64,000 nucleotides of DNA from the NCBI GenBank assembly GCA_028701035.1, contig JAQVRO010000001.1, positions 5,497-69,496 of the forward strand, given 5' to 3'. Shown here piece by piece: positions 29,919 through 59,547 of the stretch. This stretch comes from Minisyncoccota bacterium (GTDB lineage: Bacteria; Patescibacteriota; Minisyncoccia; Minisyncoccales; CSSED10-335). Positions within the stretch are counted from its first letter, which is position 1. Every line of letters begins with the position of its first letter. Both the position numbers and the translations under genes were made by a program. The notes beneath the pieces are model-generated. The model saw nothing but the letters and a program-made list of their open reading frames with translations, was not told the DNA's origin and did not search any database.

Positions 29919-30020
29919 ATATAACTACATACTAGTATATTTTTTAACTCAGGTCAAGACTTAGTCTTATCCAACGCAACGATAGCATGAAATGCCCCCC
30001 GCTTTCCAATACAAGATTCC

Positions 30021-30147
30021 ATTAAGGAGCTAAGCTCCTTAATCCAACCTCCTTAACCTATACTTCGCTTAATTAAGGAGCTTAGCTCCTTAATCCGACC
30101 TCCTTAATTTCGTTAAGGGGCTTAGCGCCTTAATCTAGGCTCCTTAA
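30021..30147. repeat. REP cluster A (3 hairpin units), same family as the RAYT-flanking REPs
   Basis: ATTAAGGAGC-TAA-GCTCCTTAAT, ATTAAGGAGC-TTA-GCTCCTTAAT and GTTAAGGGGC-TTA-GCGCCTTAAT, each followed by a tail ending CTCCTTAA. Confidence 0.9.
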
Positions 30148-50863: not shown

Positions 50864-53842
50864 TTAAAATTTAAGGTCTAAGTCAGAGATATCAACTTCC
50901 TTTGGTTTTTCCTCTTTTTTAGTTTCAACTATTTTTTTGTCTTGTTGTTTATCCTCTGGCTCTTTTTGTTCTTCCTTAACTTCAATCTTTTTTTCAGCTA
51001 TAGCATCCTTTCTCTTGGCTTCTTGTTCTTCTTGGGCTCTCTTCTTAGCTTCGGCTTCTTTTTTTTGTTGCTCTATCTTTTTCAAGTAATCCTCGGCTTG
51101 TTCGTATATTGATTTAGCAGAGAAAAATCCAGCTTTCTTTTCAGGTTTGGTAGCTTTAGTTAATACTTCCTTAAATGCAGTAGCACTTTCTTCTAGCTTA
51201 TGACTATTATACATAGAAACTGCATTTTTGAAAAGACTATTAATTTCTAATTCTTTTTCTTTATCGACTTGTGGCCTCTCCTGTTGGACTTTAGCTATAA
51301 CTTCTCTTCTTTTAGATTCTTGTTCTTCTTGGGCTCTCTTCTTAGCTTCAGCTTCTTTTTTTTGTTGTTCTATCTTTTTCAAGTAATCTTCAGCTTGCTC
51401 GTATATTGATTTAGCAGAGAAAAATCCAGCTTTCTTTTCAGGCTTTGAGGCTTTAGTTAATACCTCTTTGAATGCAGTAGCACTTTCTTCTAACTTATGA
51501 CTGTTATACATAGAAACTGCATTTTTGAAAAGACTATTAATTTCTAATTCTTTATTTTTCTTTACTTCTTCTGCTTCTTTCTTTTGTTTTATCTTAAGAG
51601 CTTCTTCGGATTTTTTAAGATATTCTTCGGCTTGTTCATATAATGTTTTGGCAGAAAATAGTCCAGATTTTTTTTCGGGCTTAGGGTCTTTCTCCATTAC
51701 CTTTTTGAAACAAACTATACTTTCTTCTATCTTTTGATGATTATACAAAGATACCGCATTATTAAAAAGATTTTTAATTTCTAATTCTTTCTTTTTCTGG
51801 TCCTCCAACTCTTCTTGAGCTTTCTTCTTAGCCTCAGCCTCGGCTTTTTCTTTGGCGATTCTCTCGGCTTCAATTTTCTTCATTGCTTCTTCCCTGGCAC
51901 GCCTTTCTTCCTCTTGCCTCTTCTTAGCTTCAGCCTCAGCTCTTTGTTTATTCTCTTCTTCTTGTTTTCTCCATCTAAGTTCTTTTTCTGCCTTAATTAT
52001 ATAGTTTTCAGCTTTAAGTTTAAGAGAAATTCCTTTATCTTTAGATAAAGATACAAATATGTCTGGGTTTTGGTTGATTTTTTCTAATTTATTTAAAACA
52101 CTATTAAAGCCAACCAAGCTCTCTTCGAATTTACCTTGATCGAATAGATTAACCGAATCATCTATTATCTTGTTTAACTCTTGACGAACAAGCTCTTCTT
52201 TAGCTTTTCTTTCAAACTCATATTCAATTTCTTTTTTAGCCTCCTCTTTAGCTCTTCTTTCAATCTCCCGCCTTTCTGCATCTTGTTTTATCTTTGATAT
52301 TTGATTTTCAGCTTTTAAATATATTGGGTGATTTTTGTCTAGCTTGCTCATTAGTTGCTGAAACCCTTTCATGCAACTATCTAAGTCTCCATTTTGGTAT
52401 AGATTATTGCATCGCTCAAATTCATTAACAAGTTCTTTTTCTTTCTCTTCTTGGGCTCTTCTTGCTTCTTCCATTGATCTTTGCTCTTCTAATTCTTTTT
52501 GTTTTCTTAATTCTTCTGCCTCTTGAATACGCTTCTTCTCTTCTTCTTGCCTCTTCCACCTAATATCTTTCTCTGCTTTCAAGATGTAGTTCTCTGCTTT
52601 GAGTTTAAAAGATACTCCCGCGTCGGCTAGTGAAGTAAATTCGTTTAGCTTAGATAATACATTTTTAAAAGATACAATACTCTCTTCAAGTTTGCCTGAT
52701 TCGTAGAGAGAAATACCTTCAGCTAAAATGGAATTGAGCTCGACTCTTTGTTGTTCTTGTAGCTGGCGTTGCCTAGCTAGTTCTGCTTCCCTTTCTAGTC
52801 TTTCTTGTTCTTCTTTTTTAGCTCTTTCTTCTTGGGCTCTTCTTTCTTCTTCTTGCCTCTTCCACCTAATATCTTTCTCTGCTTTCAAGATGTAGTTCTC
52901 TGCTTTGAGTTTAAAAGACACTCCCTCGTCGGCTAGTGAAGTAAATTCGTTTAGCTTAGATAATACATTTTTAAAAGATACAATACTTTCTTCGAGTTTG
53001 CCTGATTCGTAGAGAGAAATACCTTCAGTTAAAATGGAATTAAGCTCAGCTCTTTGTTGTTCTTGTAGCTGGCGTTGCCTAGCTATTTCTGCTTCCTTTT
53101 CTAGTCTTTCTTGTTCTTCTTTTTTAGCTCTTTCTTCTTGAGCTCTTCTCGCTTCTTCTATTGCTCTTTGTTCCTCTAATTCTTTTTGTCTTCTTAATTC
53201 TTCTGCCTCTTGAGCCATTCTTCTTTCTTCTTCTTCTTTTTGTTGCTTAAGAATTCTGTGCTCTTCGTGCATCTTTTCGAGATCAATAGCACTATCAAGA
53301 TCTCTTAAGTTCTTTGTTAAAGTGTTAAGTTCTATTAAAGCCTTATCTGTTTTTTGTTTTAACTCAGCGATATTAGATTGTTCAACGCTATAATTCTCAG
53401 TTATTCTTTCAATGTTTTGAGCTCTTTTAGATATTTGACTTTCTAGTTGACCTACCTTCTCTTCTATTGCCCATCTTTTATCTTCTAGCTCTCTTCTTTT
53501 GTCTACCAATGCCCATCTTTCACGCTCAATCTTTCTCTTCTTTTCTATGTCATCAGTAGATGTTTCTTGGTTTTCAATATTCTCTTTTTCTTTATCGAGA
53601 ACTTCTTTTTCTTTTAAGATATATTCTATTTCTTTCGAAAGATTAGCTTTCTCGTCAACATCCTTAGTCATTGCTAATTCTTCAGCTTCTTTTTCCCTAA
53701 GAGCACTGTTTAGATATTCGTCTTTTACTTTTTTGAGTTCACTTAAACGCTCTGCTTCTTTTTGCAGAAGCGAAGAGTTTTGCTCAATTGATTTTTTTTG
53801 CAACTCCAACTCTTTTATTTTACTGTTGGTGATTTCTTGCAT
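50864..53842 (-). CDS. 992-aa coiled-coil protein with repeated TPR-like helical hairpins
   Basis: E/K/R-rich coiled coils alternating with LY..GKLEES..F..VL..KAENYI units. Confidence 0.8.
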   Translation of the reverse strand: MQEITNSKIKELELQKKSIEQNSSLLQKEAERLSELKKVKDEYLNSALREKEAEELAMTKDVDEKANLSKEIEYILKEKEVLDKEKENIENQETSTDDIEKKRKIERERWALVDKRRELEDKRWAIEEKVGQLESQISKRAQNIERITENYSVEQSNIAELKQKTDKALIELNTLTKNLRDLDSAIDLEKMHEEHRILKQQKEEEERRMAQEAEELRRQKELEEQRAIEEARRAQEERAKKEEQERLEKEAEIARQRQLQEQQRAELNSILTEGISLYESGKLEESIVSFKNVLSKLNEFTSLADEGVSFKLKAENYILKAEKDIRWKRQEEERRAQEERAKKEEQERLEREAELARQRQLQEQQRVELNSILAEGISLYESGKLEESIVSFKNVLSKLNEFTSLADAGVSFKLKAENYILKAEKDIRWKRQEEEKKRIQEAEELRKQKELEEQRSMEEARRAQEEKEKELVNEFERCNNLYQNGDLDSCMKGFQQLMSKLDKNHPIYLKAENQISKIKQDAERREIERRAKEEAKKEIEYEFERKAKEELVRQELNKIIDDSVNLFDQGKFEESLVGFNSVLNKLEKINQNPDIFVSLSKDKGISLKLKAENYIIKAEKELRWRKQEEENKQRAEAEAKKRQEEERRAREEAMKKIEAERIAKEKAEAEAKKKAQEELEDQKKKELEIKNLFNNAVSLYNHQKIEESIVCFKKVMEKDPKPEKKSGLFSAKTLYEQAEEYLKKSEEALKIKQKKEAEEVKKNKELEINSLFKNAVSMYNSHKLEESATAFKEVLTKASKPEKKAGFFSAKSIYEQAEDYLKKIEQQKKEAEAKKRAQEEQESKRREVIAKVQQERPQVDKEKELEINSLFKNAVSMYNSHKLEESATAFKEVLTKATKPEKKAGFFSAKSIYEQAEDYLKKIEQQKKEAEAKKRAQEEQEAKRKDAIAEKKIEVKEEQKEPEDKQQDKKIVETKKEEKPKEVDISDLDLKF
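51021..51553. repeat. Intragenic direct repeat (~236 bp, offset 297 bp)
   Basis: 51021-51256 is near-identical to 51318-51553; a more diverged copy follows at about 51600-51800. Confidence 0.85.
52541..53149. repeat. Intragenic tandem duplication (306 bp / 102 aa)
   Basis: 52541-52846 is near-identical to 52847-~53149. Confidence 0.9.
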
Positions 53843-53889
53843 GTTTATTATTTATATTTCTATTATATACAATGTATATTTTTTTGCAA
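53823..53889 (-). repeat. Direct repeat copy X1: promoter and first codons of the 992-aa gene
   Basis: 59/67 identical, ungapped, to 57710-57776; minus strand TTGCAA..TATAAT..ATG. Confidence 0.88.
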
Positions 53890-53911
53890 TAGTTCTTGCT
53901 GTTTAGCTTCT

Positions 53912-53936
53912 GATTAAGGCGCTAAGCGCCTTAATC
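53912..53936. repeat. REP B
   Basis: GATTAAGGCGC-TAA-GCGCCTTAATC. Confidence 0.9.
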
Positions 53937-54078
53937 TGCCATTGCCTTATTTTAAATATTTCAATATTATTTTATCACAAAAAATTAAAAAATCTAGCAC
54001 CTGATTAATTGGAGAAATAATTTATATGTTAATTCTCTGATATTAATTAATAAAATAATAAAAACGGCATCCACATAC

Positions 54079-54927
54079 TCAACACACATAGTATCTTCCC
54101 CTATCCTTCTTCACAATTCCTTTTAAGCAAAGAATAGAAAGCGTCGTGTTCGTCTGTGAAATATTCATCTCTATAATCTTACAAATACTGTTTGCATCCA
54201 TCGCTTCGCTTTTCAAAACATCAAAAACTTTCTTTTCGTTTTCTGAAAGTCCTTCTACTTTTTTTGCACTTCTTTTCTCTGAGCTTTTATTAAAAAAAGA
54301 AAGTATTTCTTCTGCTGAAAGAACACTCTTGGCCAATCCTTCTTTGATAATTCTGTTTGTCCCTTGTGATGTGGGATTAAATATAGAACCAGGGACGGCA
54401 AAAAGTTTTCTTTTGTATTTAACTGCTAAATTCACCGAAATAAGTGTTCCGCTTTTTTCTTCTGCTTCAACGGCAAGCACTGCTTTTGAAAGTCCAACAA
54501 CAATCCTATTTCTTTTTGGATAAGTCCACTTGCTAGGAGGGTATCCGTTATCAAACTCAGAAAGAATAAGACCCTTCTCTTCTATCTCTTTGTAAAGATC
54601 TCTTTGATAAGCAGGATGAATAACATCAACCCCACACGGCATAACAGCAATTGTTTTTCCACCCACACTTAACGCTGCACGGTGTGCCGCCGCATCAACG
54701 CCATACATAAATCCAGAAACAATAGTCACTCCTTCTTTAGCAACCTTTGAAACAATTTCCTCAACAACTCTCTTGCCATAACTAGTTATTCTCCTTGAAC
54801 CAACAACCGCCAAAGTATCACTAAAAATACTCTCATCAAAATCCCCTCTATAATTCAAAGCAACAGGAGCATCCTCAATCCCCTTTAAAATACTAGGATA
54901 GTTTTTATTATCAAGAAATATCTTCAT
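54079..54927 (-). CDS. dprA: DNA-processing protein DprA
   Basis: AVVGSR, IVSGFMYGVDAAAH, YPKRNRIV, VEAEEKSGTL, FAVPG; C-terminal wHTH. Confidence 0.95.
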   Translation of the reverse strand: MKIFLDNKNYPSILKGIEDAPVALNYRGDFDESIFSDTLAVVGSRRITSYGKRVVEEIVSKVAKEGVTIVSGFMYGVDAAAHRAALSVGGKTIAVMPCGVDVIHPAYQRDLYKEIEEKGLILSEFDNGYPPSKWTYPKRNRIVVGLSKAVLAVEAEEKSGTLISVNLAVKYKRKLFAVPGSIFNPTSQGTNRIIKEGLAKSVLSAEEILSFFNKSSEKRSAKKVEGLSENEKKVFDVLKSEAMDANSICKIIEMNISQTNTTLSILCLKGIVKKDRGRYYVC

Positions 54928-55267
54928 AATGCGTAATTCTCTCTACTCCCCCATTATTATTTAGCACAATACAAATCAAATCTATTCTGTATTGCCCCTT
55001 GTAGTTTTTTCTTTGAGCGTATCCTAATGCCCCTCTTCTTAATCTCCTTGTCTTATCTTTTTTGATTGTTTCTTCTGGACTACCAAATCTTTCGCTAGTT
55101 TTTGTTCTTACTTCCACAAAAACAAGCTCATCATCTTTACTAGCAACAATATCAATTTCTACATATTCTGTTTTGTAATTCCTTTCTAAGATCTGAAAGT
55201 CATTCTTTTGTAAGTATTCACAAGCAATATCTTCTCCTTTTATTCCTACATCTTGTTTGTTATGCAT
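54911..55267 (-). CDS. yraN: YraN family PD-(D/E)XK nuclease
   Basis: GEDIA..YL, ILERNY, EIDIVA, LVFVEVRT, YRIDL. Confidence 0.92.
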   Translation of the reverse strand: MHNKQDVGIKGEDIACEYLQKNDFQILERNYKTEYVEIDIVASKDDELVFVEVRTKTSERFGSPEETIKKDKTRRLRRGALGYAQRKNYKGQYRIDLICIVLNNNGGVERITHYEDIS

Positions 55268-55278
55268 TATAATCGTTA

Positions 55279-56805
55279 CTATTTTCTCGGTTCATCTAGG
55301 CGATACTGCAACGCCTCAGCAATATGCTCTATTTTTATTTCTTCACTTCGACCAAGATCAGCAATTGTTCGCGCAACTTTTATTACTTTAAAATATGCTC
55401 TCGCAGACAAGTGAAACTCCAACGAAGCACTGACTAAAACATCCTCTACTTCTTTAGATAAAGAAGCATACTTTTCTATCTGCTTGTTCTTCATTTCAGA
55501 GTTTGTAAAAATATTTTCCTCTTTAAACCTCTCTTTCTGTAATTCTCTTGCTTTCTCAACTCTCTTTCTTATCTCTTTTGACTTTTCATTATTTGCCCTC
55601 TTCTTTTCTTCCGCAGTTAATTTTTTAGTTTCTACATCGGGAACCTCTATATGAATATCAATCCGATCAAGCATCGGGCCAGAAACTCTTTTCCTATACC
55701 TTTCAACTTCTCTCTCAGTGCAACTACACTGTTTCTTTTCACTGTTAAGATATCCACAAGGGCAGGGATTAGCAGCAGCAACAAACATATATCGTGCGGG
55801 ATAAACAACACTCTCAATACTTCTTGAAATATTTACATATCCGTTCTCCATCGGTTGTCTTAGAGCTTCCAACGCCGATCTTTGAAACTCGTTTAGCTCA
55901 TCTAAAAACAATACTCCTCTATGGGCAAGTGTCACTTCTCCGGGCCGAGGACGAGTTCCTCCGCCAGTAAGTCCAATTGAAGATATCGTGTGATGTGGAG
56001 CACGAAAAGGACGATTTTGAATAAGCGAACTTCCCGGAGGCAGATTGCCAGAAACAGAATATATCTTTGTTACTTCAATTGACTCTTCTTCATTTAATTT
56101 TGGGAGAATCCCCGAAAAAGCTCTTGCAAGCATTGTTTTCCCACTTCCCGGACCACCAATCATAAACAAATTATGCCCTCCCGCTGCCGCTATCTCTAAG
56201 GCTCTCTTTGCTTCTTCTTGTCCTAAAACTTCTTCCATATCAAACTCACAGAAAAAATCCTCCTTCTGTTTCTTGTACTTCGCTCTTTCCGGCTGTTCCC
56301 TTCCACTTAAAAATGCTGTTAATTGCGAAAGATCTTTTACTGGATAAACATTTACTCCCGCCACTACCGACGCCTCGTTAGCCGAAAGCATAGGAAGAAA
56401 TATATTTTTGTATCCGTTTTCTTTTGCAAAAAGAGCAAGTGGAAGCGCTCCTTTTGTATGCCTCAACTCTCCATTTAAAGAAAGCTCTCCAAAGAACAAA
56501 CTTTTTTCAGGAATGGTTAAATTTAAAACCGAAGCAATAATTCCAGTAGCTATCGGCAGATCATAACAAGAACCATCTTTGGGAACATCAGCTGGAGCAA
56601 GGTTAACAATTATTCTCCTTCTGGGAAACTCTATTTTTGAGTTGCTTATTCCCGCCCGAACTCGCTCCTTACTCTCATCAACAACCTTCGCTGGAAGTCC
56701 AACAATATCAAAACTGGGAAGCCCCTTCTTCATCACATTGACTTCCACATCAACCCCAATAGAATTAAGGCCTAAATGAGCGACAGATGGTATCTTAATA
56801 AACAT
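55279..56805 (-). CDS. comM: ComM/YifB Mg-chelatase-like AAA+ ATPase
   Basis: IVGLP, VNLAPAD, GGPGSGKTM, RPFRAPHH, GEVTLAHRGVLFLDE, NPCPCG, SGPMLDRID. Confidence 0.95.
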   Translation of the reverse strand: MFIKIPSVAHLGLNSIGVDVEVNVMKKGLPSFDIVGLPAKVVDESKERVRAGISNSKIEFPRRRIIVNLAPADVPKDGSCYDLPIATGIIASVLNLTIPEKSLFFGELSLNGELRHTKGALPLALFAKENGYKNIFLPMLSANEASVVAGVNVYPVKDLSQLTAFLSGREQPERAKYKKQKEDFFCEFDMEEVLGQEEAKRALEIAAAGGHNLFMIGGPGSGKTMLARAFSGILPKLNEEESIEVTKIYSVSGNLPPGSSLIQNRPFRAPHHTISSIGLTGGGTRPRPGEVTLAHRGVLFLDELNEFQRSALEALRQPMENGYVNISRSIESVVYPARYMFVAAANPCPCGYLNSEKKQCSCTEREVERYRKRVSGPMLDRIDIHIEVPDVETKKLTAEEKKRANNEKSKEIRKRVEKARELQKERFKEENIFTNSEMKNKQIEKYASLSKEVEDVLVSASLEFHLSARAYFKVIKVARTIADLGRSEEIKIEHIAEALQYRLDEPRK

Positions 56806-56863
56806 AATACAATTTGATTAAATTCTAACAAATATAATACAATTATTAATACTTATTTAATCT

Positions 56864-56964
56864 CTATACTTCGCTTAATTAAGGCGCCTGGCGCCTTAAT
56901 CTAACCTCCTTAATTTATACTTCGCTTAATTAAGGCGCCTGGCGCCTTAATCTGAACTCCTTAA
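56864..56964. repeat. REP cluster C (2 tandem units, period 51 bp) downstream of RAYT
   Basis: TATACTTCGCTTA-ATTAAGGCGC-CTG-GCGCCTTAAT plus a CTCCTTAA tail, twice; same linker as in cluster A. Confidence 0.9.
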
Positions 56965-56968
56965 TACT

Positions 56969-57640
56969 TTAATCCTTTTCTATTAAATATTTATCTATAT
57001 CTTTTTTATTACGGCTTTCCTCAATCACCATTTTGACAAACTTTTTATACTCCACTACCGAATTTGACCCTTGTGCTTCAGAAAAATGATCAAGAATAAT
57101 GTCTTTACTCGCAACCAAATCGTCTGGCCTTTCTCCTAAGAAATATCCATAGCTTGTCCATGGATAATCTTCAACATCAGCTATTTTATGAATTTGTGAA
57201 TTACCATTGATATAGGCAGACAGCCAAAGAAGATAATCATCATTATCAATATGAATTGCTTTGTAAGCTCCTTGGAATAATCTACCTGGGCGATTGTATT
57301 TTTTATTAATAAAATTAGTATAGCTGTGTCCTATTTTGTGTAAAAATTTAGAAATACCATCATCGGTTAATTGTTGTAATATCAAATGATAATGATTAGG
57401 TAATAAATTATAAGCATTTATTGTGACTATTTTTTCTAATCCCTCTAAGAAGGAGCTTAGCTCCTTAATATCTTTACGAGCCACAGATGCCCTTTCTTCG
57501 TAATAAGATTTATTATTAAAATCCTTTAAGCCTCTTTTAAACATTTTATAATCTTCGTCTTCTCTAAAAAGCAATGAATCAGCTACAGCTCGATTATAAA
57601 CATGATAGTATTCACCATTGGTAAATTTTATTTTTCTCAT
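56969..57640 (-). mobile_element. REP-associated tyrosine transposase (RAYT; IS200/Y1 HUH family)
   Basis: GEYYHVYNR, AYNLLPNHYHLIL (HUH), GRLFQGAYK, AYINGN (candidate catalytic Tyr), YPWTSY; REPs on both sides; no tnpB. Confidence 0.9.
57450..57469. repeat. REP D inside the RAYT coding sequence
   Basis: AAGGAGC-TTA-GCTCCTTAAT, read as IKELSSF in the transposase. Confidence 0.8.
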
Positions 57641-57652
57641 ATAACTTTTTTC

Positions 57653-57702
57653 GTTAAGGAGCCTGGATTAAGGAGCCAGGCTCCTTAATCTAACCTCCTT
57701 AA
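57653..57702. repeat. REP E
   Basis: GTTAAGGAGCCTGG-ATTAAGGAGC-CAG-GCTCCTTAAT-CTAACCTCCTTAA. Confidence 0.9.
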
Positions 57703-57709
57703 TTTGTTG

Positions 57710-57776
57710 CTGTTGGTTATTGCTTGCATATTTATTATTTATATCTCCATTATATATAATGTGTATTCTTTTGCAA
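57710..57776 (-). repeat. Direct repeat copy X2: duplicated promoter and truncated gene start, now upstream of RAYT
   Basis: Matches 53823-53889; ATG at 57729 gives MQAITNSNKLRRLD* vs MQEITNSK in the full gene. Confidence 0.88.
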
Positions 57777-57798
57777 GCGTTCAGTTGTTTGGTTCTTG

Positions 57799-57848
57799 GT
57801 TAAGGAGCCTGGGTTAAGGAGCCAGGCTCCTTAATCCGACCTCCTTAA
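57799..57848. repeat. REP F
   Basis: GTTAAGGAGCCTGG-GTTAAGGAGC-CAG-GCTCCTTAAT-CCGACCTCCTTAA; abuts the stop codon of the pilin-LamG gene. Confidence 0.9.
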
Positions 57849-57849
57849 T

Positions 57850-59547
57850 TTATTTGGTGGTCCAGGTGGGGCCGTCTCCAACAGGTAAGAGGGTTCCGTG
57901 GTTGTCGTTTCCGCTTCTGTCGTAGGCGGTTTCGCCTTGACCTTCGTTTAATGGCCAGTGGCCAACGAGGCCGTTTCTGATATCGTAGCCTTTGTAGAGT
58001 TGCTCTACTTCTTCTGCAGAGAGAGCTCGGTTGTATATACGGACATCGTCGATAAGACCGTCCCAAAAATAAATATCAATACCCCCCACTCTTAAAGGTC
58101 CTACTATATCAATACTTGTAGAATCGACCCTACTTCCTATAAAAGAATTGTCAATAAATAGATTTGCATTAGATCCATTTCTAGAAAAAAATAAATAATG
58201 CCACTCTCCATCATTGTAATTCTCAGTTGTTGTTATTCTATTCGTACCTCCCCCCATCCAATAAACCCAAACTCCGTAAGGCTCATTATTAAAATTAAAA
58301 GATATATTATTAGCACTATAACTTGATCCAAAATTTAAAGCATGCATCCTCTTATTTGATATTTCGCTTTTAAACCAGAAACCAACCGAAAGATTATTTG
58401 TCCCAAAATCCCAGGCAGAATCATTCGGAATATTCGCATAATCGTTAGTGCCGTCGAAGTTTAGGGCGATTTCGGGGGCGCCGGTGGAAACTTCTTTGGT
58501 TTCGTCTTCAGTGGATTTTAAGGAAATGTTTTTGGTGACGGGGTTTTGCCAAATGGTATATTTGCTAGAATATTCGTAGTTGTATAGGTCTTGGATTTCT
58601 TCTGCTGATAGTGCTCGGTTATAGATGCGGACATCGTCGATAAGACCTTCCCATGACTGAGTTGTACTCCCTGGAAGGACTTGCCCAAATACATCATTTT
58701 CAGTATTATCGCCTAAAGTATCCAGAGATCCTGTTTCAGTTCCAGTTAAATTGCCATTTTTATAAGCTTTATAGGTTGTGCCATTTTTTACCCATGTAAT
58801 GTGTGTCCACTCATTTTCGGAGATAGTTCCAAAGTTTCCTCCTGTCCAGATGTCAATCCAATTACTGCCGGAGCCACTATAAAAAGAAATATTCTCTCCG
58901 TATATACCGACATAAAGAACCCCTTCCTTAGAAAATACTCTGTGATGTCCTGATGAAATTGGAGTCTTTACCCATGCTCCCAAAGACACCTCTGTTAAGT
59001 TGCTAGGGATTTTTACATCTCCTAAATCAATATAATCGTTATCTCCATCAAAATCTAAAGCTTCGCCCATTTTACCATCTACCCATGTAGGCCCATTAAA
59101 CAAAGTCCCATGGTTTTCGTTGCCACTGGCGTCATAGGCAGTTGTTCCACTTCCCTCGTCGAACTTCCAGTGTCCAACAAGCCCATCGGTAATATTACTT
59201 CCAGATATACTTCCCTCTTTTGGATCAACTAAATACTTACTTAAGTAGTTTGGTTTTAAGCAATCATACAAGTCATACTCTCCTGGGCCTGTGCCGATTG
59301 CAGTAAACTTATCTTGTGGAAGTGGTCCACTAGGACAATTCCAACCTCTATCGTTTTTTACTTTCTGTTGCACAGAGAGTAATATACTATTTAAATCTGA
59401 TTCTCTTTGAGAATCTCTTTGCGCTTTGATTTTTCCTACTGGGTCTACTGCTACCACAAAGAAAACTCCAAATATTATCATAACGCCAACGACAATCAAT
59501 AGCTCTATATATGTAAACCCTTTTGTTTTGTATAAATATTCTTTCAT
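57850..59547 (-). CDS. Type IV pilin-like protein with two LamG (concanavalin A-like) domains
   Basis: KG|FTYIELLIV; GLVGHW, ALDFDG, GLIDDVRIYNRAL twice. Confidence 0.88.
   Translation of the reverse strand: MKEYLYKTKGFTYIELLIVVGVMIIFGVFFVVAVDPVGKIKAQRDSQRESDLNSILLSVQQKVKNDRGWNCPSGPLPQDKFTAIGTGPGEYDLYDCLKPNYLSKYLVDPKEGSISGSNITDGLVGHWKFDEGSGTTAYDASGNENHGTLFNGPTWVDGKMGEALDFDGDNDYIDLGDVKIPSNLTEVSLGAWVKTPISSGHHRVFSKEGVLYVGIYGENISFYSGSGSNWIDIWTGGNFGTISENEWTHITWVKNGTTYKAYKNGNLTGTETGSLDTLGDNTENDVFGQVLPGSTTQSWEGLIDDVRIYNRALSAEEIQDLYNYEYSSKYTIWQNPVTKNISLKSTEDETKEVSTGAPEIALNFDGTNDYANIPNDSAWDFGTNNLSVGFWFKSEISNKRMHALNFGSSYSANNISFNFNNEPYGVWVYWMGGGTNRITTTENYNDGEWHYLFFSRNGSNANLFIDNSFIGSRVDSTSIDIVGPLRVGGIDIYFWDGLIDDVRIYNRALSAEEVEQLYKGYDIRNGLVGHWPLNEGQGETAYDRSGNDNHGTLLPVGDGPTWTTK

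Follow-up and report, generated by a model that had tools for sequence, protein, structure and literature searches.

Does a transposase-like enzyme carry natural-transformation genes between genomes, or do the two come to lie side by side by separate routes? The question is raised by a locus in a 64,000-nucleotide stretch of a Minisyncoccota bacterium (GCA_028701035.1, contig JAQVRO010000001.1, positions 5,497 to 69,496, forward strand; hereafter the window). There, dprA, yraN and comM lie beside the gene of a tyrosine transposase of the REP-associated kind (RAYT), among repetitive extragenic palindromes (REPs) and between two copies, X1 and X2, of a duplicated gene start. A first-pass annotation of this DNA had proposed that a RAYT/REP module moved the transformation genes, or else was domesticated alongside them. 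Our analysis divides that proposal: comM-yraN-dprA moved horizontally, but its carriage by a RAYT unit bounded by X1 and X2 is not supported, and the two may or may not have been domesticated together. What emerges is a transformation-recombination cassette that is itself mobile and recurrently, though not specifically, has a RAYT for neighbour; the data give no support to a RAYT transposon that carries cargo between att-like repeats. As to its history, we lean towards two separately arrived parts, namely an imported cassette that replaced the native genes and a hairpin-flanked RAYT that landed independently, the repeat being a scar of integration or of REP-flank copying that now probably drives the RAYT.

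A cassette shared with a distant lineage

The cassette consists of three intact genes of named families, forming one co-directional cluster on the minus strand: comM (yifB; 55279..56805; TIGR00368, 570 bits, cut-off 362), yraN (54911..55267; NF009154, 114 bits, cut-off 109; PF02021 also above cut-off) and dprA (54079..54927; TIGR00732, 226 bits, cut-off 191; PF02481 also above cut-off), with a TrmB-like match at 226-281 of DprA that stays under its cut-off. As first annotated, these three and the RAYT gene lie between the two repeat copies; each of the four products passes a family cut-off, the RAYT that of Y1_Tnp. Among the four copies of the cassette compared, nonsynonymous divergence (dN) is 0.04-0.10 against a synonymous divergence (dS) of 0.36-0.99. 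In terms of gene presence, the genome also holds comEC, comF, pilM and pilin genes.

The same three genes were found in two genomes of a distant lineage, Candidatus Paceibacterota Tobar13.5m-G73 and Patescibacteria MAG133 (G157 and G158), with identities of 93% for ComM, 81-84% for YraN and 82-84% for DprA. In comparison, RpoA and RpoB are 54% and 66% identical to those of G157/G158, with an RpoB dS above 2, so that the cassette, being far closer than the core genes, was likely imported as a block. The tract common to the window and these two genomes (54096..56824, minus strand; 82-87% nucleotide identity), which we take as the horizontally moved unit, has one limit 16-19 bp ahead of the comM start and the other about 17 bp short of the dprA stop; the RAYT, REPs B to F and both repeats lie outside it. 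In G157 and G158, what comes ahead of the cassette is comF and RAYTs that are 35-36% identical to ours and have other hairpins, and its flanks differ as well. Together with the polyphyly of the RAYTs that adjoin such cassettes (see below), this speaks against carriage between X1 and X2.

On the ComM tree, this genome and its sister species are nested within the group of G026, G159, G157 and G158, and a grouping of these four without this genus was rejected by the approximately unbiased (AU) test (p = 6.6e-5), whereas on RpoB the four form a clade that excludes this genus. This conflict makes the lineage of the four the likely donor. Codon composition was uninformative, as GC content at third codon positions in the cassette (0.23-0.30) falls within the range of the genome (0.27 +/- 0.04).

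With respect to the sister species, the cassette genes show a dS of 0.36-0.51 and rank 2, 4 and 5 of 43 genes (median 0.94), whereas between G157 and G158 they are not slower than rpoB (0.44-0.79 against 0.39). The low divergence from the sister, not seen in the G157/G158 pair, suggests arrival or exchange after the two species split. In the same comparison, the gene at C6:10280-11440 has a dS of 0.10, far under all others of the 43, and is likely a recent exchange.

The native comM slot lies between the orthologues of C35:4617 and C35:5214 of this genome, and was found to hold comM in all 8 type-A loci (the scattered native arrangement described below) that show both flanks, of 9 compared. 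In this genome the slot (C35:4973-5214) contains two REPs and shared flank modules only, the gene being gone, and no dprA is present ahead of topA. A separate comF followed by a 54-codon dprA remnant occurs at C10:5937-6888, with two REPs upstream of comF; the remnant is closest to type-B DprA (54%), the type of our cassette, and is possibly an older, decayed cassette. According to passages of 10.1101/2024.10.21.619469, complementation between species by DprA and ComM requires that both be transferred, and part of PMC13663708 describes YraN as acting with ComM. A cognate DprA-ComM pair, with YraN acting beside ComM, would explain why the replacement was by a whole cassette, wholesale replacement of native genes being expected if DprA and ComM work only as cognate pairs. 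For that reason the cassette would have to move whole, and it would do so by natural transformation into pilin loci.

The RAYT, its hairpins and the duplicated gene start

On the minus strand, the locus reads: stop codon of a pilin-like LamG gene (57850..59547, the upstream flank), REP F, X2, a 14-codon frame, REP E, RAYT, REP D, REP C, comM, yraN, dprA, 140 bp, REP B, X1, a 992-aa coiled-coil/TPR gene (50864..53842, the downstream flank) and pilM. The RAYT gene (56969..57640, minus strand) encodes 223 aa with H83, H85 and Y143, which are invariant across 5 aligned relatives, Y143 being the putative catalytic Tyr. The protein scores 31 bits against PF01797 (Y1_Tnp; cut-off 23) and 31.5 bits against NF047646 (REP_Tyr_transpos), below the cut-off of 80. 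A modest structural model (pLDDT 61) gave TnpA_REP of Escherichia coli (PDB 4ER8) as the best fold match (E 2e-5), and also IS608/ISDra2 TnpA; searching PDB sequences with an alignment of the RAYT returned no match. The protein thus combines an HUH motif and one catalytic Tyr in a Y1 transposase fold, it is the only Y1 transposase gene found in the whole assembly, and its motifs NHYH and FQ are those of subclass 2.1 / Group 1, not DH[LF]H and WE/WQ. Its gene is flanked by REP C (56878..56914, a hairpin with half-hairpin tail), REP D (56929..56965), REP E (57654..57704) and REP F (57800..57850, immediately past the pilin-LamG stop codon), members of a family dispersed over intergenic regions, and close homologues bear related hairpins. 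On these sequence features the protein is predicted to work like a RAYT.

RAYTs are described in passages of 10.1101/2021.07.10.451892 as stationary and vertically inherited. The RAYT of the window does not behave in this way: its six closest homologues (48-61% identity; 400 genomes) belong to six other families and occupy six different sites (1 beside a type-B cluster, 2 beside pilin genes and 3 elsewhere), and no homologue was found in the 7 members of its own family that were searched. Stationary RAYT inheritance does not hold in this order. Under the reading of two separate arrivals, RAYT-REP units would be mobile in this order and enter the same variable pilin region as the cassette, where they would be kept because they share a transcript with the competence genes and move along with DNA that is often recombined. 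A relative at 86% identity (P0002) is probably the sister species' gene. A shortened REP hairpin lies in frame within the RAYT gene itself (57447..57472), as also in the close homologues L220-L223 and L052, a trait that has been published for subclass 2.4.

Each REP consists of a perfect stem of 10-11 bp and a loop of 3 bases, often with a half-hairpin tail, and the family comprises 54 hairpins in 24 clusters in the 580-kb assembly; non-REP flanking modules of 30-70 bp are common to many of the clusters. The hairpins at both ends of the block, which had been called REP-bounded, are real, but with REPs occurring genome-wide such a boundary is nothing special here. No GT[AG]G foot was present beside REPs B to F on either strand. 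A non-palindromic module of 55-65 bp adjoins more than 10 REP clusters (for instance at window positions 29960-30140, at C35:5133-5193 and at C18:20770-20837) and in many cases has TTGAC at its end, immediately ahead of a gene, which gives the impression that the REPs bring along a portable promoter part; other shared flank modules resemble terminators. In the sister species (G001, contig C42; L129:6390-6900), two REP pairs enclose about 350 bp that contain a small frame, whereas the matching site of this genome (C22:3215) has a single REP cluster, which amounts to a REP-bounded indel between the two species.

What is special about the locus is the two-copy X module, and not the proximity of REPs. 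X1 (53823..53889) and X2 (57710..57776), both on the minus strand, are identical at 59/67 positions without gaps at an offset of 3887, and looser gapped similarity extends from them into REP B (53912..53937; degenerate in the sister species) and REP F; all these values, first reported in the initial annotation, were reproduced on re-measurement. The runner-up ungapped match of X1 in the 580-kb genome reaches 42/67. Both copies contain a promoter-like site, TTGCAA-16-TATAAT (10/12), and the first 7 codons of the 992-aa gene. The two sites are among the four best of the region, in a scan that by itself is weak (19 sites against 12.9 in shuffles). The ATG of X2 opens the 14-codon frame (57685..57729, minus strand), which resembles the 992-aa gene for 7-8 codons and stops within REP E; the second copy is indeed cut where it meets this REP. 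Since X2 keeps both boxes, it is likely the best-placed promoter for the RAYT, as judged from its sequence and position.

Two routes would produce this picture. In the first, donor DNA with the RAYT, the cassette and its own X would join by homology inside the coiled-coil gene and, at the other end, by an illegitimate join at codon 7-8, where the gene start resembles a REP tail, leaving the resident promoter stranded upstream. The process behind this route would be homology-facilitated illegitimate recombination. In the second, copying of a REP with its flank would yield the same X1/X2 arrangement; passages of PMC3333891 propose such copying for TnpA_REP, and the flank modules shared among REP clusters in this genome show it. 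Both routes fit the repeat, and the X distances (see below) do not decide between them. In comparison with the sister species, synonymous changes are rare in the first 75 codons of the coiled-coil gene (8/75 against 17/45), which would weakly favour the first route, with a recombination tract ending there.

The same features could be read as a composite element, in which the RAYT excises and inserts the whole block from REP E to REP B (or X2 to X1) as a single-strand unit that brings a replacement promoter and gene start. A truncated gene start at one end, a full promoter and start at the other and REPs at both would be accounted for in this way. RAYTs of the candidate phyla radiation occur with their hairpins at many different sites, and the 350-bp insert of G001, bounded by REP pairs and absent from the same site here, also counts in favour. 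However, the DNA shared with the donor lineage lacks the RAYT, the REPs and the repeats, and the donor copies lie beside unrelated RAYTs, come with a comF in addition and differ in their flanks. Furthermore, there is no second copy in the genome, no RAYT relative was found in viral contigs, a plasmid search gave only matches below 60%, and no X1-X2 empty joint occurred among the joints listed for four sequencing runs, a weak negative as only contigs were used and rare forms are dropped from them. According to part of PMC3333891, IS200/IS605-type enzymes make no target duplication either. We therefore regard the composite element as improbable.

Type-B clusters and their RAYT neighbours across the order

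We surveyed 150 genomes drawn from the order, 106 of which have comM. In 19 of the 106 it is of the type of the window (60-71% identity) and has dprA for a neighbour, in most cases along with yraN and comF (type B); one more genome, the twentieth, has type-B dprA-yraN without comM. The other 87 matches are at most 55% identical; the 20 of these placed on the tree are of type A, for which comM, dprA and yraN stand at separate conserved sites. Type-B ComM (24 rows) and type-B DprA (25 rows) each form one clade with support 100, whereas their hosts are scattered, with 13 changes on the RpoB tree (FastTree), 9 of them forced by starred branches, and monophyly of 15 B hosts against 5 A hosts was rejected (AU p = 8.4e-6; 24 of 57 rows, first 600 columns). 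Hosts of the two types are interspersed in families, and in one genus as well (G140 B, G104 A). Of the carriers of a type-B comM other than this genome, 0/19 gave a second comM match. On the tree, type B is set amid ComMs that come from outside the order, and within it ComM mostly groups by host family. Type-B clusters also gather GIY-YIG, Fic, NYN and toxin-antitoxin genes. Matches to DprA of 50-51%, the level of type B, are named Omnitrophica (P0201, P0218, P0224), and on this sequence likeness type B may extend beyond Patescibacteria.

The first-pass annotation had also suggested looking for RAYT-comM-yraN-dprA synteny elsewhere, and the link recurs. When adjacency was scored on the DNA of each locus rather than on the RAYT match table, 10 of the 20 type-B clusters had a RAYT within 3 kb, 5 had none within 6-9 kb on both sides and 5 were cut by a contig end, hence 10/15 assessable clusters, 3 of the 10 having supplied the search profile. 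The chance expectation, from RAYT numbers and genome sizes, is about 0.8 of 15, or 2.3-4 if only 10-20 sites per genome are available. In contrast, control loci in RAYT-rich type-A genomes gave 0/20 for comM and 0/20 for dprA (up to 6 kb per side, some cut), that is, 0/40 native comM/dprA loci, and a RAYT lay directly upstream of control yraN loci in 2/29 genomes (1.5 kb per side). All 14 adjacent RAYTs seen, including those of this genome, G157, G158 and G236, lie on the cassette strand, and in G033 and G114 the RAYT is inside the operon. RAYT-like matches as a whole occur in at least 77/151 genomes, with up to at least 19 per genome, and most RAYT loci examined come with a perfect palindrome of their own, at odds with what has been published on subclass 2.1.

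We rejected the idea that one RAYT clade is bound to the cassette, as the adjoining RAYTs are polyphyletic (8 changes on the RAYT tree, 5 forced), each clade with its own hairpins. Partners differ even within one genus (G145 versus G115/G064). The non-adjacent RAYTs of this tree came from the high-scoring matches of a profile built on adjacent ones, which bars a judgement on clade specificity. Outside the order, none of the loci of the 20 best ComM matches had a RAYT nearby (0/20; neighbourhoods only, by profile search, with Pfam on 60/124 neighbouring frames), and 7 of the 20 were clustered with dprA or yraN.

The recurrence invites the thought of a functional partnership, in which the type-B competence operon would have taken in RAYTs again and again because of what they do to the single strand as it enters. 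Such a RAYT would cut REP hairpins on transforming single-stranded DNA (ssDNA) and join it to a chromosomal REP site, a homology-free junction, and DprA/RecA, ComM and YraN would make and resolve the homologous one. The excess of RAYTs at type-B clusters over native loci, the shared strand (14/14), the two intra-operon cases, the RAYTs upstream of native yraN, the presence of ComEC and the cut of X2 exactly at a REP all agree with this, and E. coli TnpA_REP, according to passages of PMC3333891, cleaves and recombines ssDNA away from REPs and has been proposed to capture flanking genes. But the five assessable clusters without a nearby RAYT, two of them in genomes with no RAYT among the matches listed, argue that it is dispensable. 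Partners are swapped within a genus, the out-of-order loci lack a RAYT in their neighbourhoods, and only 1/6 closest homologues of our RAYT lies beside a B cluster. Kin are, in addition, not independent, so that the counts overstate events and the 10 cases may represent 5-6. We hold this partnership only as a tentative alternative. Equally doubtful is its extension to a REP-addressed integration system of Paceibacteria, by which a mobile operon would recruit a RAYT that joins incoming ssDNA at REP sites with one-sided homology, the X2/REP E junction being its fossil, and would have spread across the order, displacing native genes.

At the opposite end stands the absence of any meaningful link, where A and B are old paralogues sorted by loss with few transfers, the RAYT excess is inherited from few ancestral neighbourhoods, and X2 is a local copy of REP B and its flank. 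Within type B, ComM mostly follows host family, most RAYT-positive clusters sit at the same site upstream of rpoB, REP-flank modules of 30-70 bp have been copied to many sites, and the short branch of X1 (2) and the long one of X2 (6) are as expected after duplication and relaxation. The deep A/B pattern may stem from ancient paralogy and loss. Against this, no type-B genome kept an A copy, the types alternate within families and within a genus, type B has ComMs of other orders' genomes or beyond around it, this genus shows a clear and recent transfer, and the RAYTs at the shared site come from different clades. We thus consider it unlikely, though somewhat less so than the composite element.

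Several points weigh against the two separate arrivals that we favour. The distances among X1, X2 and the sister's copy (8, 9 and 13 of 67, the sister's copy differing from X1 by 9/67) are unrootable, and they agree with a local duplication no less well than with a pair made up of a donor and a resident copy; it is common for dS to be low where a gene starts, as in the coiled-coil gene; and the sister's sequence upstream of comM lies beyond the end of its contig. In addition, the REP family of this genome recurs, together with its linker, in G158, both within the cassette there and at 8 further places, which implies that in both lineages the cassette and this family of RAYTs came together. At L053:5283 of G158 the REPs and linker sit between yraN and dprA; no cognate RAYT was found in G158. 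Finally, a RAYT is present in 7/7 assessable clusters with rpoB on the same contig (8/8 when G101, whose site is inferred, is counted) as compared with 4/35 stretches upstream of rpoB without a cassette (2.6-12 kb in length, several genomes being left out where the contig ended at rpoB). Clusters at other sites also have a RAYT (G114, G016, G157, G158, G236), so that a shared hot spot is not the full explanation, and in 4 genomes the cluster accounts for the sole RAYT among the matches listed. RAYTs, pilins and type-B clusters recurrently occupy the pilin/TPR-gene region upstream of rpoB (L226, L234, L236, L262).

Known systems, assembly integrity and relatives

Among known systems, the RAYT unit most resembles the REPtron of E. 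coli (TnpA_REP, PDB 4ER8; passages of PMC3333891 and PMC5581495): a single HUH Y1 gene with flanking hairpins that are also dispersed (54 here), the same best fold match, and hairpin clusters that share linkers, as do bacterial interspersed mosaic elements (BIMEs). It differs in the absence of a GT[AG]G foot, in its subclass 2.1 / Group 1 motifs and in that homologues occupy many sites, with up to at least 19 matches per genome; nor does it show the hairpin foot and motifs of canonical groups 2 and 3 (subclasses 2.2 and 2.5). Subclass 2.1 is reported, in passages of PMC6006769, to be without REPs, and in parts of PMC5581495 this group is credited with the most IS-like traits among true RAYT groups. 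IS200/IS605 elements share the HUH Y1 fold, the hairpin ends and apparent mobility between sites, but the protein here has 223 aa with an insertion and a C-terminal tail, there is no tnpB and no near-identical second copy, and those elements make no target duplication. The displaced, truncated gene start at one end and the full promoter and start at the other recall SXT-type elements. SXT is reportedly an integrative element at prfC that restores the 5' end of its target gene. The block of the window differs from it in having no integrase or conjugation gene, a repeat diverged by 12% and no excision seen.

The three genes themselves correspond to the DprA-ComM-YraN module described in parts of PMC13663708 and 10.1101/2024.10.21.619469, with three families above cut-off, comEC in the genome and a C-terminal winged-helix-like region on DprA; the difference is that here the module is horizontally mobile and replaces scattered native copies. 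Transformation is treated in passages of PMC13663708 as a chromosomally encoded process, those of PMC12378983 concern mobile elements that disrupt comM, not ones beside which comM spreads, and the passages of PMC12455944 mention neither comM, dprA nor a transposase. In a search confined mostly to titles and the starts of abstracts, without subscription papers and supplements, we found no report of a RAYT-comM/dprA link or of a mobile comM-yraN-dprA cassette in Patescibacteria. Whichever mechanism applies, the recombination arm of transformation is a horizontally spreading cassette in an order of ultra-small bacteria. The host function of RAYTs is a long-standing question, and as they lie beside the cassette far oftener than beside native copies, transforming ssDNA on entry offers a concrete, testable setting for their activity.

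The duplication could in principle be an assembly chimera of two strains, given that the genome is fragmented (41 contigs) with contigs breaking at REPs, and that no listed independent contig spans the REP E/X2 junction with 31 bases to each side. Parts of the stretch are present in 22 runs from 12 studies, no RNA run being among those listed, and four of the runs were examined at contig level. In the best run, a 3784-bp contig covers 53111-56894 with no difference; contigs of two other studies bridge X1 to dprA (53318-54292 and 53251-54357); and another covers the RAYT and REP E (56969-57722), reaching 13 bases into X2, so that this junction is not formally bridged by an independent study. 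Relatives of the RAYT and DprA at 98% identity occur in other assemblies, on contigs of matching length (11,083 and 165,528 bases; indirect evidence), X1 and X2 are 12% apart with different flanks, and the sister species keeps the order of cassette, X and coiled-coil gene. As far as testable there is thus no sign of a chimera, which we regard as very improbable.

No empty allele turned up in relatives or in the contigs of the runs. Listed joints that seemed to skip the block, including one from 53935 to 57814, contain linkers of other REP clusters and were set aside. The apparent lack of dprA, comM and RAYT in G001, of the same genus, was likewise rejected as an empty allele, since its contig ends just before the cassette and L050, which is 99.1% identical to G001, has it. 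At L050 the order is comM-yraN-dprA-X-coiled-coil at the same site, with a decayed REP B, a contig cut inside comM and, following the cassette, an 830-aa orthologue of the 992-aa gene. In one run (X4), a contig departs from the window at 53971, upstream of REP B, for at least 255 letters, which could reflect either a different allele or DNA inserted between dprA and REP B; 30 letters of its loose end were not found in 5 genomes. In the family member G007, the pilin locus has no cassette, no dprA match was obtained with the query of this genome, and a single frame of 1643 aa (L040:5971-10902) encodes the coiled-coil protein joined to PilM.

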